Of a stretch of 64,000 bases of DNA, positions 47,909 to 63,035 are shown piece by piece; the first letter of the stretch is position 1; every line of letters begins with the position of its first letter. The DNA comes from Candidatus Microgenomates bacterium. GTDB lineage: Bacteria; Patescibacteriota; Microgenomatia; UBA8517. A model generated the notes under the pieces. It did no database searches, was not told the DNA's origin, and was given only the letters and a program-made list of their open reading frames with translations. A program made the position numbers and the translations under genes. The stretch lies in the NCBI GenBank assembly GCA_049519355.1, contig JBEKQV010000001.1, forward strand, positions 150,408 through 214,407, read 5' to 3'.

Positions 47909-50083
47909 TTATTGTTCGGGTTGTACATCAAGGGTAATATTACCCGGAATCCTGGGAAGTGTGTCTAGAGGCGGAGGGAATTTAAAGTTTATTGTCACCT
48001 CAGCGTGCCCAAAACCGGGAATTGAATCCAGATAATTTTGTGCCACCGATGGAGTTTTACCGGCAATAAGACTAATTACCTTTTGTGTATCGATTTGGGG
48101 CAAAAAGTTGGCGCCAACCGTAACGTTATAACTATAATTTCCATTAAGTTGTCCGACATACACAAATTGAAAATCTATCTGGCTATCGCTTAATGAATAA
48201 CCGGCAGGAATTTTATCATTCAAAACACCCTTGGCGTATTCCAAAAGTTTTGACTTGTCCGCAGCAAGTCCTGTGGCATTTAGAGCCAGATCAAGTTTAA
48301 GACTATCCGCCTGATCCCCAACTTTATGGTCAAAACTCTCCGATACGGTATCTAACCCGGCCAAACCGGTAACAAAAATCTGATCTGTTGAAACTTTTGC
48401 CGAAATATCACTCTGAGCATTCTGGGTAAGTTCGGACTTAAGATCCGCTTCCAAACTGGTTTGATCATCTTTACTAACCGCTGATACTTCCTGACTGCTG
48501 CCTCCCGAAAAATCTGCAGTCGAGGTTGCCGCCACAAGCGCCTTTGAATAGTTTCCTACACTGAAAACTTCACCTTTTGCCAAATTATATTGGGCTCCGA
48601 TATCACCCGCAGATACATCAACATTTGCAGTTCCGGGTGAACCCGGCAGGATCTGTCCGGAAACTGAAGCCGTGGAAACCGTTACAAATTTAAGGCCTGC
48701 GGAAGAGGTAAGAATTGTACCCGCAGATAAATTTATTGCCGCACCATTACCGTTAGCTATCTGAACACTACCCGTAGATCTATTCCCGATTAACTGGGTG
48801 CCTGTAGCCGACTTTGTCTTTTCACCTTTGACCTGATCGGTAATCACTTGCGCCGGAATAATACCGTTCGCCGCGTCAAATTGACCGTTTGGACTAAACG
48901 AAACCTGCACCTGCTGTTCAAATCTTTTAGGAGTAACGAAAACAGTGATTTTCGCTTTTGGATAAAACCACCAAAAGACTCCGGCTCCAATGACGGCAAC
49001 AACCGCAAGAACCAAGAAAATAATCCACGAATTACTTTTTACACGCGGGGCGGCAGGTGTTTTTGCACCAACTTTTGCCGAGAAAGAATGAAAAAGATTC
49101 TTAGATTTTGCCAAATACTCACCGGCTAATTTTGCCGGATTAAAAGCTGCCTTTGGGCTAGGAACAGGAATTACCGGTTGCGGCGGAACCACATTTTGGA
49201 TTTCGGCGGTTCTCGCGGCAACATCCTCTCCGATGGCAAAACCCATATTTTCAGGTGGTACGGTTTCTTCAATCAACTCCTCGTTGTCTTCCGTTTTTTC
49301 TTCATCTTGAGGTTCTACTGAAGCAACCTGAGACACATGACCGATTTCCGCCGCCCCGGCTAGAGAAGTGGCCAAGACCTTTCTGTCGGAACTTAGTATC
49401 TCGGCTTTGGGAGTGTGCAAAAATTTAACCTTTTCACTTTCCGACCAGGAGGCCTGCATAAGAACATTTTTTGCTTCCTCCAGTTCGCCTTCGCGTCCGT
49501 CGTAGACAACAAAACGTGACGGAAGCGGTACTGCTCCCTCAAATCTGGAAAGTCCTTCCGTAACGTCCTCAATAAGAGAGACGCTTCTTGAAACCTCCGT
49601 CGTACCAACCAGGTTCCCTAACTTAAACACCGATATTTCCAAATATTCCTCCCCCAATTTCAAAACCACGGCGCTTAGGGGCGCTCCTTCCTCGGATTTA
49701 TAAAGATGGGCGATTGCTTCCGGAAGAACTACAAATCCCACAGGAACCAGGGACAACTCCGCACAAAGTTTTTTAATCTTACTCAAATACTCTTCTTTAA
49801 TTTCTCCACCTTTAACCCAAGATGCAGAAACTCCGAAAACCGTTTTATTGGGCTCTTTATAATCCTCGGGGAGCTTTTGAACTGCGGAAGAAAGTGCGGC
49901 ATCCGCCGCACCCAAAAGTTCTTCATCGGTTGACCAGGCGGCACCACTACTTACACTAATCACTTCGGCGGCAGTTTCACCTATATACCAAATTCCCGCC
50001 TGGATCCAATCCTCCTCTATCACAAGCGACCAATAAAGTTCAGGAGGATGTTCCCTACTAGCTAAAAAGTCTTTGAGGTTCAT
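47909..50083 (-). CDS. Large bitopic membrane protein: N-terminal actin-like (PilM/FtsA-like) cytoplasmic domain, one TM, Ser/Thr/Gly-rich extracytoplasmic domain
   Basis: About 340 cytoplasmic aa with an actin-fold-like pattern (LYWSLVIEEDWIQAGIWYIG ... LVPVGFVVLPEAIAHLY). TM helix WIIFLVLAVVAVIGAGVFWWFY. About 350 aa extracytoplasmic domain. Possibly a PilM-PilN/O-like fusion. Confidence 0.4.
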   Translation of the reverse strand: MNLKDFLASREHPPELYWSLVIEEDWIQAGIWYIGETAAEVISVSSGAAWSTDEELLGAADAALSSAVQKLPEDYKEPNKTVFGVSASWVKGGEIKEEYLSKIKKLCAELSLVPVGFVVLPEAIAHLYKSEEGAPLSAVVLKLGEEYLEISVFKLGNLVGTTEVSRSVSLIEDVTEGLSRFEGAVPLPSRFVVYDGREGELEEAKNVLMQASWSESEKVKFLHTPKAEILSSDRKVLATSLAGAAEIGHVSQVASVEPQDEEKTEDNEELIEETVPPENMGFAIGEDVAARTAEIQNVVPPQPVIPVPSPKAAFNPAKLAGEYLAKSKNLFHSFSAKVGAKTPAAPRVKSNSWIIFLVLAVVAVIGAGVFWWFYPKAKITVFVTPKRFEQQVQVSFSPNGQFDAANGIIPAQVITDQVKGEKTKSATGTQLIGNRSTGSVQIANGNGAAINLSAGTILTSSAGLKFVTVSTASVSGQILPGSPGTANVDVSAGDIGAQYNLAKGEVFSVGNYSKALVAATSTADFSGGSSQEVSAVSKDDQTSLEADLKSELTQNAQSDISAKVSTDQIFVTGLAGLDTVSESFDHKVGDQADSLKLDLALNATGLAADKSKLLEYAKGVLNDKIPAGYSLSDSQIDFQFVYVGQLNGNYSYNVTVGANFLPQIDTQKVISLIAGKTPSVAQNYLDSIPGFGHAEVTINFKFPPPLDTLPRIPGNITLDVQPEQ

Positions 50084-56563: not shown

Positions 56564-57176
56564 GACTCATTTGTTCCGATTTCGGAATATTTTTTTTCTT
56601 TTCCTCGGCAATCTTTTTGAGTGCATCGGGGAGCCGTAAAAAATCTTCTTTCTCCTGTCGCATTACTTCCCCATTCCTAAGCGCCGCGGCCGGGTGATAC
56701 ATCGGAATTACAAAAAGATCTTTGTCTTTCCAGTTTACTCTAAAAAGTTTTCCGTGGGCAGAGGAAATTTTGGCGGAGGGCAAAAACTTTCCCATTGAGT
56801 ACCTTCCGAGTGTAACGATAACTTCGGGATCGATTATATTAATCATCTCGTCCAGATATTTTCCGTAAGCCGCCATTTCTTCCGGAAGCGGGTCCCTATT
56901 TTCCGGAGGTCGGTGATGAACAACATTTGTAATGTAGACACTTTCTCTGGGCATTTCGATTGACCTAAGAAGTTGATCTAAAAATTTACCGGCATTTCCA
57001 ACGAAAGGTTCTCCTTTCATATCTTCCCAATAACCCGGGCCTTCACCGATAAAAAGAATTTTTGTCTCGGGATCTCCGACTCCAAAAACAAGTCTTGTGG
57101 CAACTTTTTTAAGAGGAAGGGAATCGTCCGCTTCCATTTTTTCTTTTAACTTCTGAAGTTCTTCCGCCTTAGTCAT
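56556..57176 (-). CDS. Uracil-DNA glycosylase, family 4-like, without Fe-S cysteines
   Basis: Motif A GEGPG...GEPFVGNAG and motif B HPAAAL. The protein has no cysteine residues at all. Confidence 0.8.
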   Translation of the reverse strand: MTKAEELQKLKEKMEADDSLPLKKVATRLVFGVGDPETKILFIGEGPGYWEDMKGEPFVGNAGKFLDQLLRSIEMPRESVYITNVVHHRPPENRDPLPEEMAAYGKYLDEMINIIDPEVIVTLGRYSMGKFLPSAKISSAHGKLFRVNWKDKDLFVIPMYHPAAALRNGEVMRQEKEDFLRLPDALKKIAEEKKKNIPKSEQMSLV

Positions 57177-57645
57177 CTATTATAAATTCTACCTTATTTG
57201 TCTCCGTATTATAAATTGCAAAGTTATTTCCTTTAATAATCGCCCCGGGCCGGACAACTTTTACATCTGCAACAATACTTTCGTCTTTTGAATGTATGTG
57301 ACCGCAGAAAATAATATCAAGTTTTTTATCCTTAAAATATTTTTTTAAATCGCTCGGTTTATGAGTTATGCCAATTTTCCTGCCACCCAAATCAAATTCA
57401 AGAAAATCTTCCGAAAACATTTTACTTTTCAACTCCAAAATTTTAATTACTTCCGGCCGGATATCGGCATTTCCCAAAACGGTATATAAAGGGATTTTAA
57501 AAGAAACAACTGCTTCGACAGATTCAATCGTATTCCAATCGCCGCAATGAATTACGGCGGAAACTCCATACTTTTTTGCAAAACCCATTACAAGTTTTAA
57601 ATTCGCAACATGACCGTGAGAATCCGACATAACTAATATCTTCAT
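57169..57645 (-). CDS. Metallophosphoesterase (YfcE/MJ0936 family)
   Basis: DSHG, GDW and GHIH metal-binding motifs; 158 aa. Confidence 0.85.
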   Translation of the reverse strand: MKILVMSDSHGHVANLKLVMGFAKKYGVSAVIHCGDWNTIESVEAVVSFKIPLYTVLGNADIRPEVIKILELKSKMFSEDFLEFDLGGRKIGITHKPSDLKKYFKDKKLDIIFCGHIHSKDESIVADVKVVRPGAIIKGNNFAIYNTETNKVEFIIDD

Positions 57646-57660
57646 ATTTCCTATTCTATA

Positions 57661-58707
57661 TTATTGGGGCAAAAATTCTTTGACATTCGCTGAGGTAACG
57701 TGAACATTTTGTGCTTTACCTTCAACCAAACTCATTGCAACTTTCCTGACAACACCGTCGATATTTCGCTCTAAGGTACGTATTCCTGCATCGTACCCAA
57801 GCGGGCGGACTATATTTGCCCAAACATCATCATCAATAGTCAAACTGCCGGCGGGGAGTCCTGAACTTTTCATAGCGGTCGGGAGAATATATTTCTGCCC
57901 AATCACAATTTTTTCCTGGTCGGTATAGGAGGGCATTGAAATTGGTTCCAGTCTATCCATCACAGCCGTAGAAATATTTGTAGTGTTATTGGCGGTTGCA
58001 ATAAATAAAGTCTCCGAAAGGTCGAAGGGAAAATCAATGTAATGGTCCACAAAAGCATAATTCTGTTTGGGATCCAGTAGCTCCACCAAAACTCCCATAA
58101 TCGAACTCCTTCCTTGTTCGGTTACTCTATCTATTTCATCAAGAAGAATCACTGGATTTTTACTTTGAGTATCCCTTAGAGCTTTCATAACTTTTCCCGG
58201 CTCCGCCTCGGGGTGCATTCGGGATTGTCCCCTAAGATCCAGCGGATCTCCCATTCCTCCAAACGGAATTCTGGCAATAGGCCGGCCCAAGGCTTCAGCA
58301 ATTGAATAAGCGATGGTTGTTTTTCCGGTTCCAACCAAACCCACAAAACAAAGAATTGGGGCTCTATATATATCGGCAGTTTCCCCTTTTTCCTGTTTAA
58401 GTTTCATCACGCTCATATATTCCAAAACGCGGGTTTTAATTTCGGTAAGTCCGTAGTGGTGAATTTCCAAAATTTTCCTGGCGTTAGTTAGATCCAGAGT
58501 ATCCTGCGTTCTTTTGTTCCAAGGCAAAATTGTAATCCAATCGATATACTTCACCATGCTGTCAAACTCCGGCAAAAATGAAGGAGAATTTGTAAGTTTG
58601 GAAAGTTGTCCCAAGCGGACCAAAACAATCTCACGGAGTTTCTCCGGCAAATCGGCTTTTTTAATCCTATCAACTAAAACATTAATTTCCTGGGCAGCAG
58701 AATCCAT
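57661..58707 (-). CDS. Lon-like AAA+ ATPase lacking both the N-terminal LAN domain and the S16 protease domain
   Basis: Collinear with E. coli Lon residues about 250-600: YIDWITILPWNKRT, HYGL, Walker A GLVGTGKTT, LGRPIARIPFGGMGDPLDLRGQSRMHPEAEPGK, NPVILLDEIDR. Ends at ...NVKEFLPQ, where Lon continues into the protease domain. Confidence 0.8.
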   Translation of the reverse strand: MDSAAQEINVLVDRIKKADLPEKLREIVLVRLGQLSKLTNSPSFLPEFDSMVKYIDWITILPWNKRTQDTLDLTNARKILEIHHYGLTEIKTRVLEYMSVMKLKQEKGETADIYRAPILCFVGLVGTGKTTIAYSIAEALGRPIARIPFGGMGDPLDLRGQSRMHPEAEPGKVMKALRDTQSKNPVILLDEIDRVTEQGRSSIMGVLVELLDPKQNYAFVDHYIDFPFDLSETLFIATANNTTNISTAVMDRLEPISMPSYTDQEKIVIGQKYILPTAMKSSGLPAGSLTIDDDVWANIVRPLGYDAGIRTLERNIDGVVRKVAMSLVEGKAQNVHVTSANVKEFLPQ

Positions 58708-58735
58708 AAATCTAGTGTAGCACTAATGAATTATC

Positions 58736-59302
58736 TCACGAAGCGCTTTGGGTTTGCTCACTCGCCACAACAAAATTTGGTCTATTCTCAAATAGTCTCG
58801 CAGCTGCATTACAATTTTCAGCTATTCTGTCCCATATTTTAATTTGACCTTCCGCTGAAGCAGCAGCTGTTAAGGGATTTGAAAATACTCTAAATCCTTT
58901 TGTTTCACCCTCGGTACGTTGGTCGTCTGCCATTTTTTTCCAACCCGCGGCCTCTTTTCTGTAATATTCGATTGTCTTTGATATAGGCGCCTTGCCGGTA
59001 GCCCCTTGAAGAGCGTCGTGTATTCCCTCCCACAAATCGTACTCAACAATATAATCAGAATCTGACTCCGACAATCTCTGAGTAGCCTCCTCCCTATAAT
59101 AAGCTTCTTCCGCCCTCAACATTCCGACCACCATTTCAATGGTTATCTGTTCAGGAGAAACCTTACAAAAAGTATGCCATTCAATTTGAGAGGCGCGTTC
59201 CACTTGCTCCGAAGGATCTTTCAAAAAGGCATACTCGCGAGAAACAGCTTGCCTTATTTCTGCTACTGAAAGTTTTTGTTTAGGAGCTTCGCTCGATTCC
59301 AT
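58736..59302 (-). CDS. Hypothetical protein (188 aa)
   Basis: No recognisable motif. About 43% GC. Immediately upstream of the Lon-like ATPase on the same strand. Confidence 0.5.
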   Translation of the reverse strand: MESSEAPKQKLSVAEIRQAVSREYAFLKDPSEQVERASQIEWHTFCKVSPEQITIEMVVGMLRAEEAYYREEATQRLSESDSDYIVEYDLWEGIHDALQGATGKAPISKTIEYYRKEAAGWKKMADDQRTEGETKGFRVFSNPLTAAASAEGQIKIWDRIAENCNAAARLFENRPNFVVASEQTQSAS

Positions 59303-59345
59303 AATTTTCTAATTGATAGTAACACAAATTGTCTTGTCAATGAAG

Positions 59346-62066: not shown

Positions 62067-63035
62067 TTAACCTTTGTTTTCACTAAAAGTAGTTGGTTGA
62101 TTTTGGCTGGAAGTGGCTCCTTTATAAATCTTGGGCTGTAACCAGTCGGAAGGAGGATTTACATCAGGATTCTCCTGTGTTGCCTCCGGAGCAACAGTTT
62201 CGGGTTGAGTTTCAATCTGGGCGGGAGGAGTAACGGGTTTTGGCATAGAAACAGGAACCTGGTTCCTCAAATTAAAGGGTCTTTTGGGAATTGCTCCCGG
62301 GGGAAAGTTTATTGGGCTAAGTTTAACTTTTGGCATGCGCTGGCCTCCGCTTCTAAGTAGGTATGCAAAAGTTTCAAAAGTTTCCGGTCTGACTTCTTGT
62401 GAGGCAAAATTGGAACTTCCCTCTTCAATTCCCATTACCAAATTTGTTGCAGTATCAACATCAATTGTAAAACCGTTTTCCCTGATAAGATTTGCAACCA
62501 GCTCGGAAACGGTAGCTCCGGGCAAGGCAAACGACATAACCTCATGCTTCGAGTCAAGAACTCGGGTTCCCACATGAGCAACCTTTGCTCCGGCTAGTCC
62601 TTCAGACAAAAGAACCGGGAAATGAGAATCATCCGCTCCTCCGACCAAAATCACAAGATCGGCGGAAACTCCCGAATAGCCGATCGCGATTTGGTCTTTT
62701 TGAGGAGCCATTTGCCCCGCTTTCGGGACTACTGTAAGCTTAAATTCGCCGTTATCAATATCGTAGCTGACTTTATCAATATTTGTGGCATCATAACCGG
62801 CAAACTTAATCATTAAATTCTTGTTGCCAATCTCAGTGGAAATTTTATTAACTCCTATCAAGCGGTTAAATCCTACCGTCATCGGGTTGGGACAAAAAAT
62901 GGCAACTTCTTTTCTATCGTGAATTGAGAGATAAAGAGAAAGTCCCGCAGCTACCTGATCAAAATAGGGGCGTGTAGGCAAAACAATAAGAATTGAGGAG
63001 GCAGAATCAACAAGGGATGCGAAGCTATTTTCCAT
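62067..63035 (-). CDS. Hypothetical protein, possibly degenerate DHH/NrnA-like phosphoesterase, with Pro/Thr/Gln-rich C-terminal tail
   Basis: Architecture and length are NrnA-like and a GGADDSHF segment is present, but the canonical DxD/DHH/GGGH motifs are not intact. Confidence 0.4.
   Translation of the reverse strand: MENSFASLVDSASSILIVLPTRPYFDQVAAGLSLYLSIHDRKEVAIFCPNPMTVGFNRLIGVNKISTEIGNKNLMIKFAGYDATNIDKVSYDIDNGEFKLTVVPKAGQMAPQKDQIAIGYSGVSADLVILVGGADDSHFPVLLSEGLAGAKVAHVGTRVLDSKHEVMSFALPGATVSELVANLIRENGFTIDVDTATNLVMGIEEGSSNFASQEVRPETFETFAYLLRSGGQRMPKVKLSPINFPPGAIPKRPFNLRNQVPVSMPKPVTPPAQIETQPETVAPEATQENPDVNPPSDWLQPKIYKGATSSQNQPTTFSENKG

Follow-up and report, generated by a model that had tools for sequence, protein, structure and literature searches.

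The window analysed here, a 64,000-nucleotide (nt) stretch of a Candidatus Microgenomates bacterium genome (assembly GCA_049519355.1, contig JBEKQV010000001.1, positions 150,408 to 214,407 of the forward strand), encodes a 348-amino-acid (aa) AAA+ ATPase derived from LonA at 57661..58707 on the minus strand, stop codon included. It is near certain that this protein is a genuine stand-alone Lon-type ATPase that possesses neither the LAN domain nor the protease domain. Sequence comparison places it in a conserved family that appears to be specific to the candidate phyla radiation (CPR; Microgenomates and Dojkabacteria), to descend from LonA and to have been shorn of both LAN and the S16 protease. 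Within this family the ATPase motor appears to be preserved, while the elements by which Lon grips and pulls polypeptides appear not to be.

The assignment is based on the open reading frame (ORF), on TIGR00763 and Pfam, on chains from the Protein Data Bank (PDB), and on AlphaFold2 (AF2) modelling with Foldseek. The protein matches positions 253-572 of the 795 positions of the NCBIfam model TIGR00763 'lon' (E 1.6e-95, 321.2 bits), and the PDB Lon chains of B. subtilis, human, yeast, Thermus, Yersinia and E. coli match nearly all of it (E ~1e-75 to 1e-67), those of B. subtilis, human and E. coli over its residues 6-346 (E ~1e-75). The scores are nevertheless below the curated cut-offs, being 321.2 versus 608.05 bits for TIGR00763 and 238.1 versus 891 for NF008053. 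Pfam recognizes AAA and Lon_lid only, with Lon_lid at residues 280-333, and neither Lon_C (PF05362) nor LON_substr_bdg is matched anywhere in the 348 aa. The alignment to Lon begins at Lon position ~244-253, and the C-terminal end falls on E. coli Lon residue ~579, where the protease domain adjoins. The protein is thus collinear with LonA ~250-580 and comprises the N-terminal three-helix bundle, the AAA+ alpha/beta domain and the Lon lid. An AF2 model built on the family alignment has a predicted local distance difference test (pLDDT) score of 90.5, and Foldseek relates it to LONP1/LonA chains with template modelling (TM) scores of 0.79-0.86 and to 6N2I with a target-normalized score (TMt) of 0.87.

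Residues 1-110 (58378..58707, minus strand) hold the three-helix bundle and the linker helices, which align with B. subtilis Lon 8-105 and E. coli Lon ~244-350 and are modelled as helices at residues 2-17, 22-37, 44-60, 73-83 and 88-106. In LonA these elements sit before the AAA+ core; of the LAN domain and coiled coil that belong there, the ATPase lacks the former entirely and the latter for the most part. A LAN domain cannot be added upstream, because the ORF opens at the first start codon after the upstream stop. When the N-terminal and S16 domains of four canonical Lons were used as tblastn queries, neither the window nor 24 related loci gave a match, and S16 or LAN sequence was likewise not found in the 10 kb by which a contig of a near-identical genome continues past the first genes of the window. 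The ATPase gene lies 15 nt from a metallophosphoesterase gene on one side and 28 nt from a 188-aa gene on the other. Aligned with LonA, the family shows no insertion, no membrane-anchor insertion and no C-terminal tail.

The family is large and uniform in architecture. A search of 5.8 billion proteins yielded more than 120 clusters at 86-100% identity, all of 348 aa except one of 350, from NCBI, JGI, ENA and Logan assemblies and on contigs of up to 950 kb. An exhaustive HMMER scan of 1.84 billion representatives added a dozen more members at 39-57% identity, of 348-507 aa (one of 669 aa), one of the representatives being from Candidatus Dojkabacteria. At 39-62% identity the family spans Microgenomates, Levybacteria, Shapirobacteria and Dojkabacteria, and all members stop 2-5 residues past the lid and differ only by low-complexity N-terminal extensions. 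Among GTDB species genomes, 13 short loci with stop-to-stop lengths of 349-412 aa from Levybacteria, Shapirobacteria and 'Patescibacteria group' form a clean dichotomy with 67 full-length Lons of ~780-1000 aa from other phyla. In a neighbour-joining tree of 337 columns, 26 short sequences make up one bipartition with a bootstrap of 90/100. Proposed signatures of the family are a ~350-aa core ending after the Lon lid and the motifs GL.G[TV]GKT, RG.S[RK]xx[PL][DE][AS]EPG, R[AS]DIMG and RP.G.D.G.R.LER, every one of which is carried by the protein in the window.

The ratio of nonsynonymous to synonymous substitution rates (dN/dS) against the closest sequenced relative is 0.04 for the ATPase and 0.046 for the adjacent polynucleotide phosphorylase (PNPase), and the identity of the ATPase to distant relatives (50-62%) is on par with that of PNPase, FtsK and S15 in the same loci. 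The ATPase gene is therefore a core gene under strong constraint. These findings agree with the original prediction, which had described both ORFs at the positions given here, had found the longer product collinear with the Lon central region up to the start of S16, and had taken it for a stand-alone ATPase free of LAN and protease; the constant length in the close clusters and the same C-terminal end down to 39% identity now extend that view to a family. Its argument that the neighbouring genes are too tightly packed to hold a split protease also stands, given the tblastn result and the bona fide Metallophos_2 gene next door, although the gaps are 15 and 28 nt and not 16 and 29.

The 348-aa clusters are named 'AAA family ATPase [Candidatus Microgenomates bacterium]' at NCBI and 'ATP-dependent Lon protease' at JGI, and one NCBI/UniRef record labels 348-aa homologues 'Lon protease'. 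Neither Pfam nor NCBIfam holds a curated model specific to a protease-less family, and full-text literature searches on Lon and Lon-like ATPases of CPR, Patescibacteria or Saccharibacteria returned no description of it. Some GTDB genome records carrying the ATPase family (L012-L016, L020 and L021) are titled 'uncultured Gammaproteobacteria' or 'Pseudomonadales'. Loci L012-L016 have the Microgenomates-type rpsO-pnp-ATPase-rnj-ftsK synteny and are 50-62% identical to the window proteins, and the titles of all seven look like wrong or placeholder taxonomy.

The 26 family members were compared residue by residue with the 67 canonical full-length Lons. All residues of ATP binding and hydrolysis are invariant in the family. 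Walker A (GLVGTGKT, residues 123-130, 58318..58341; this and the following features are on the minus strand) retains its three glycines, Lys and Thr in 26/26 members, and Walker B (ILLDEID, residues 187-193, 58129..58149) retains Asp-Glu in all of them. The same holds for Asn240 in the sensor-1 segment (FIATANN, residues 235-241, 57985..58005) and for sensor-2 Arg310 in the Lon lid (57778..57780), while the trans-acting arginine finger Arg252 (57952..57954) is Arg in 26/26 family members and 67/67 canonical Lons. In E. coli Lon numbering, sensor-1, arginine finger and sensor-2 are N473, R484 and R542 (PMC9569914). Altogether 64 positions are identically conserved in both groups. Positions that canonical Lon conserves to at least 90% and the family has lost fall into three clusters: the 'PP' of Walker A, pore loop 1 and pore loop 2. 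In Walker A, 'PP' has become L-[VAQ], with Leu at position 124 in 23/26 members versus Pro in 64/67 canonical Lons.

Pore loop 1 is remodelled throughout. In the window protein, RGQSRMHPEAEPGK (residues 159-172, 58192..58233) replaces the canonical RGHRRTY[IV]GA[ML]PGR. Where canonical Lons have Tyr (65/67), Ile or Val (64/67) and Gly (66/67), equivalent to Y398-[I/V]-G in E. coli numbering, the family pattern is RGxS[RK]xx[PL][DE][AS]EPG: the Tyr position is variable (F7/H4/S4 and others), the next residue is Pro in 17/26, the canonical Gly has become Asp or Glu in 24/26, and Met/Leu has become Glu in 23/26. The window protein reads SRMHPEAEPG here and places H-P-E at the canonical Y-[I/V]-G. 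The net charge of this segment is 0 in the family versus +4 in canonical Lons. Pore loop 2 is likewise rewritten, with RVTEQGRSSIMGV (residues 194-206, 58090..58128) in place of the canonical K.[GS].DFRGDP[SA][SA]A. The canonical D[FYW]RGDP, in which the aromatic residue is present in 61/67, Gly in 66/67 and Pro in 65/67, corresponds to [DE]AR[AS]DI in the family, with Ala in 14/26, then Ala or Ser, and Ile in 20/26; the window protein has Q-G-R-S-S-I. This rewriting of both pore loops fits the simultaneous loss of the degradation chamber. The lid has also changed, with a net charge of 0 in the family versus +7 in canonical Lon. DNA binding through a basic lid has been reported for some Lons, and this charge difference disfavours such an activity in the family.

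The protein would, on these grounds, work like the ATPase half of LonA, as far as sequence and modelled fold can tell. We propose that it forms a Lon-like hexameric ring, since a conserved arginine finger would be of no use outside an oligomer, and that this ring would hydrolyse ATP but would no longer thread polypeptides into a degradation chamber. It would act without proteolysis as an ATP-driven remodeller, chaperone or assembly factor, the product of what is probably a vertically inherited housekeeping gene. A pore lined with Pro, Asp and Glu would hardly favour a non-specific hydrophobic grip and would better accommodate basic or specific clients; acidic pore loops are by analogy linked to basic clients, and such clients may be favoured here too. 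In one subclade of three lineages with ~62% mutual identity (L018, L020 and L097/L098), the ATPase gene divergently adjoins groES-groEL, which is the only neighbour conserved within the subclade while the remaining flanks differ. Lon has a heat-shock and chaperone-like heritage, and together with this linkage it points to a chaperone-like role.

Taken as a whole, the reading as a non-proteolytic, hexameric, LonA-derived ATPase that serves as remodeller or chaperone seems to us to have slightly better than even prospects, and its functional part, taken separately, perhaps even prospects at best. One may speculate further that in Microgenomates-type CPR bacteria the sole descendant of Lon is a non-proteolytic hexameric ATPase whose acid-lined pore serves basic clients, e.g. 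ribosomal or nucleic-acid-binding proteins or RNase J, but we regard this extension as doubtful. Several observations weigh against the remodeller reading. The aromatic position of pore loop 1 is Phe in 7/26 members, in which some ability to translocate may persist. The adjacency to groESL is restricted to the one subclade, and the neighbours of most members are PNPase, uracil-DNA glycosylase (UDG) and RNase J, with nothing that bears directly on proteostasis.

The gene neighbourhood is that of a housekeeping locus. Close relatives share the order nusA-infB-(305-322 aa)-rpsO-pnp-[slot]-ATPase-Metallophos_2-UDG-RNase J-ftsK-helix-turn-helix (HTH) gene, in which 'slot' denotes the interval between pnp and the ATPase gene, and nearly all genes of the window are co-directional. 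The phosphoesterase downstream of the ATPase (Metallophos_2, YfcE-like, 158 aa; 57169..57645, minus strand; Pfam E 3.7e-24; 15 nt downstream) is in turn followed in the window by overlapping UDG and RNase J genes. Among relatives at 50-62% identity, the backbone pnp-[slot]-ATPase-(phosphoesterase)-(UDG)-RNase J is found in 11/13 GTDB loci, usually with the phosphoesterase missing, and where it is missing RNase J or UDG directly follows the ATPase. The Metallophos_2 gene is present in L001-L009 and L012 only and absent from most relatives at 50-57% identity; its GC content of 0.34 is markedly under that of the window (0.42) and of the neighbouring genes. RNase J or UDG follows the ATPase also at 41-57% identity, with RNase J directly after it down to 41% (L010, L013-L017, L022 and L093), and a relative at 39% identity is still situated between pnp and ftsK.

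The ATPase gene may be transcribed separately from the genes upstream. The 28-nt spacer (58708..58735) contains an extended -10-like element, TGCTACACT, at 58713-58721 on the minus strand, which starts 15 nt upstream of the ATPase ATG. The pattern TGnTAnnnT is found at exactly -15 in the window and in L004, L007, L008, L013, L015, L017, L022 and L092, and no Shine-Dalgarno sequence precedes the ATPase in loci with the -10-like element. The fixed offset in several lineages and the missing Shine-Dalgarno sequence therefore suggest that the ATPase is transcribed from a putative promoter of its own as a leaderless-type transcript. A generic scan for promoters and terminators was uninformative, its counts being no higher than in shuffled sequence. 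In the groESL subclade the intergenic regions between groES and the ATPase gene (L018 7488-7989, L020 7581-7968, L097 1344-1765 and L098 5580-6001) share an invariant TTGTCAAG that resembles a -35 element, and no CIRCE-type heat-shock operator was seen by eye in these regions.

The 188-aa gene upstream of the ATPase (58736..59302, minus strand) is a lineage-specific orphan and not a conserved partner. Its product has no match in Pfam, NCBIfam, PADLOC or PHROG, and the search of 5.8 billion proteins gave 2 clusters, the sole relative being a protein of 187 aa at 80% identity, as expected from the original prediction that the gene is an orphan. The relative occupies the same slot, and a dN/dS of 0.16 between the two shows that the 188-aa gene truly codes for a protein. 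Its base composition is native. The gene, present in two near-identical strains only, is very young or very restricted and absent from every other family locus examined. AF2 run on the single sequence gave an all-helical model of low confidence (pLDDT 52). With no family match, the idea that the protein is a diverged fragment of the Lon N-domain or coiled coil was set aside.

The slot (window 58708-59345, L001 5069-6000, L012 2691-7982, L022 6980-7979, L094 1534-6000) is filled differently in other loci. It is empty in L004-L009. L001-L003 hold a 280-aa gene that is unrelated to the 188-aa protein (E 0.5 for the L001 protein), and L022 holds a 275-aa gene. In L012 there are three ORFs over 5.3 kb, two without a Pfam family and one with a weak Cupredoxin_1 match below the gathering cut-off, and in L094 there are genes for domains of unknown function and an HTH_17/PIN toxin-antitoxin pair. 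Most of the contents are orphans, for which Pfam, PADLOC and PHROG give no confident match. Insertions thus recur where pnp meets the ATPase gene, and the 188-aa gene is strain-restricted cargo unrelated to the ATPase rather than its partner. A repeat search reported no direct repeats on either side of the inserted 188-aa gene; by eye alone, a weak and gapped 'AGATAA(C)TTCATT' could be noticed, which is not claimed.

Four other explanations of the truncated Lon were considered. Its missing domains are all that would suggest a lon gene truncated by frameshift, assembly error or recent decay, a possibility that the original prediction had also raised, in the form of an error hiding a downstream protease domain. 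The same length of 348 aa in assemblies from four sources, the strong purifying selection, the confident structural model, the intact genes 15 and 28 nt away and the lack of S16 or LAN remnants leave this explanation practically without probability. A more substantial alternative is a split Lon, in which the ATPase would be the unfoldase half of a protease and feed a peptidase encoded elsewhere, be it a stand-alone S16 domain or another ring peptidase, in the manner of ClpX-ClpP or HslU-HslV. AAA+ proteases made of two components are well established, neither the ATPase site nor the arginine finger is impaired, and the members that keep an aromatic residue in pore loop 1 would fit such a role. 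Yet a peptidase gene is a neighbour of the ATPase in none of ~30 family loci, both pore loops are without residues that are near-invariant in translocating Lons, and proteins that end 2-5 residues past the lid, with no insertion or C-terminal tail, offer nothing for docking. We consider a split Lon unlikely. The unfoldase role that the original prediction had put forward is in this respect weakened by the replacement, in the family, of pore-loop residues that are near-invariant in the 67 canonical Lons, while its premise of an intact stand-alone Lon ATPase is sustained.

The conserved proximity of the nucleases makes it conceivable that the ATPase works with the flanking PNPase and RNase J as an accessory of RNA decay, e.g. 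by remodelling or assembling a degradosome-like complex, and both the backbone in 11 of the 13 GTDB loci and the persistence of RNase J directly downstream at 41% identity speak for it. However, the whole block orf322-rpsO-pnp...rnj-ftsK-HTH is syntenic, and the adjacency of ATPase and nucleases may therefore be inherited gene order in a stretch where nearly all genes point the same way. In addition, the groESL subclade and L095 have kept the ATPase after losing the pnp/RNase J context, and acidic pore loops combined with a lid that is not basic do not point to a protein that handles nucleic acids; a role in RNA decay thus appears slightly less probable even than a split Lon. Far less probable is a two-gene module in which the ATPase would have the 188-aa protein as its partner, adaptor or substrate, perhaps to defend against phages. 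The genes do lie side by side in the same direction, no terminator-like site separates them, and the 188-aa gene is under purifying selection, but it occurs in this strain and one relative only, the slot is elsewhere empty or filled with unrelated genes, neither PADLOC nor PHROG matches its product, and a promoter-like element lies between the genes. Co-occurrence had been chosen beforehand as the decisive observation for this pairing, and the pair does not co-occur in other genomes. The idea of a Lon-like or AAA+ defence protein (BrxL, IetA/IteA) with a non-housekeeping role in phage defence is likewise not supported. The best PADLOC match of the ATPase is IetA (E 4e-5, over ~58 residues of the P-loop only), the NCBIfam model IteA scores 15.6 bits versus a cut-off of 510, and besides these weak, generic P-loop matches the neighbours are rpsO, pnp, UDG, RNase J and ftsK.

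Two further genes of the window deserve mention. Between infB and rpsO, where rbfA/truB are found in model bacteria, lies a gene of 305-374 aa without a Pfam family (window 62067-63035, minus strand), which is syntenic across the lineage at 24-34% identity with counterparts in L014-L017, L022 and L024. Among housekeeping genes at 47909-50083 (minus strand), a 724-aa protein is encoded that has a weak Baseplate_J-like match only (Pfam E 1.2e-5); its gene adjoins a 603-aa gene that is alanyl-tRNA synthetase-like by similarity to L017 and by position in L001.

The loss and gain of domains is common among AAA+ proteins. What distinguishes the present family is that the described Lon subfamilies (A, B, C and BA) all couple the ATPase to a protease domain, and that it breaks this rule while being conserved and strongly selected. 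Moreover, it has changed exactly those loops that move the substrate, and it may be regarded as a natural experiment on a Lon motor without a protease to feed, a natural truncation with pore-loop changes that appear to have co-evolved across a whole CPR lineage. If the doubtful extension above, of a sole and non-proteolytic Lon descendant with an acid-lined pore, holds true, it would be the first natural member of the Lon family without a peptidase, and a whole radiation would have turned a quality-control protease into a pure chaperone or remodeller that databases still list as 'Lon protease'. The family is also an annotation trap. Labels such as 'ATP-dependent Lon protease' may credit CPR proteostasis and metabolic reconstructions with an absent protease, and because protease-less 348-aa proteins are labelled Lon, label-based surveys would overstate the proteolytic capacity of the CPR. 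At 348 aa and confidently predicted, the ATPase is easy to express, and its activity is directly testable.

Among known systems the closest is LonA (E. coli Lon, B. subtilis LonA, human LONP1; MEROPS S16, TIGR00763), with which the window protein shares 35-43% identity over all 348 aa, the three-helix bundle, the AAA+ alpha/beta domain and the Lon lid with close structural agreement, and Walker A/B, sensor-1, arginine finger and sensor-2. It differs from LonA in having no LAN/PUA-like N domain, no long coiled coil and no S16 Ser-Lys protease domain, in its Pro/acidic pore loops and non-basic lid, and in its score below the family cut-off. Four LonA-defining features, namely protease domain, LAN domain, pore-loop motifs and score cut-off, are thus missing. 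The nearest structural counterpart is 6N2I, an engineered E. coli Lon AAA+ construct of 338-344 residues with nearly the same boundaries, residues 1-346 of the query being equivalent to chain residues 4-339 at the TMt given above. That construct is a laboratory truncation with canonical pore loops, whereas the window protein is natural, selected and stand-alone and has altered loops.

LonC of Meiothermus taiwanensis, LonB and LonBA resemble the present family as Lon lineages that depart from the LonA plan, and LonC illustrates that Lon can keep one of its halves while the other decays. LonC is in this sense a mirror image, since there the protease is kept and the ATPase is degenerate, while in the window family the protease is lost and the ATPase intact. 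All three keep the protease domain; LonB and LonBA have a membrane-anchor insertion in the AAA+ module, and the degenerate ATPase of LonC also contains an insertion (PMC9569914). Membership in LonB, LonBA or LonC is rejected for a protein that has no protease domain, no insertion relative to LonA and intact ATPase motifs.

ClpX, ClpA and HslU are, like the window protein, ATPase-only polypeptides of the broad AAA+ group of proteolytic machines, but they keep aromatic-hydrophobic pore loops and peptidase-docking elements, neither of which is found in the window family. Features of a two-component protease, that is a linked peptidase or an extra loop or tail, were not found across the family loci and alignment. 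Tandem-AAA+ Lons, which lie outside the window (P0123-P0129 and P0132-P0140; 890-1675 aa), are also unconventional. They carry two or three Lon-type modules, each with a Lon lid, and a single Lon_C, and they gave the highest summed scores to the query. One (P0124) is from Candidatus Dependentiae and one cluster from an 8.5-Mb genome, and P0127, in which one module almost repeats the other, may have arisen by misassembly; we know of no description of such multi-ring Lons. Unlike the window family they retain Lon_C and the GPPGxGKT Walker A and are not from the CPR. They were considered as Rosetta-stone fusions, but their extra modules are canonical (GPPGxGKT, no DAEPG) and their hosts are Dependentiae and bacteria with large genomes, and they are therefore not fusions of the present ATPase family with a protease.

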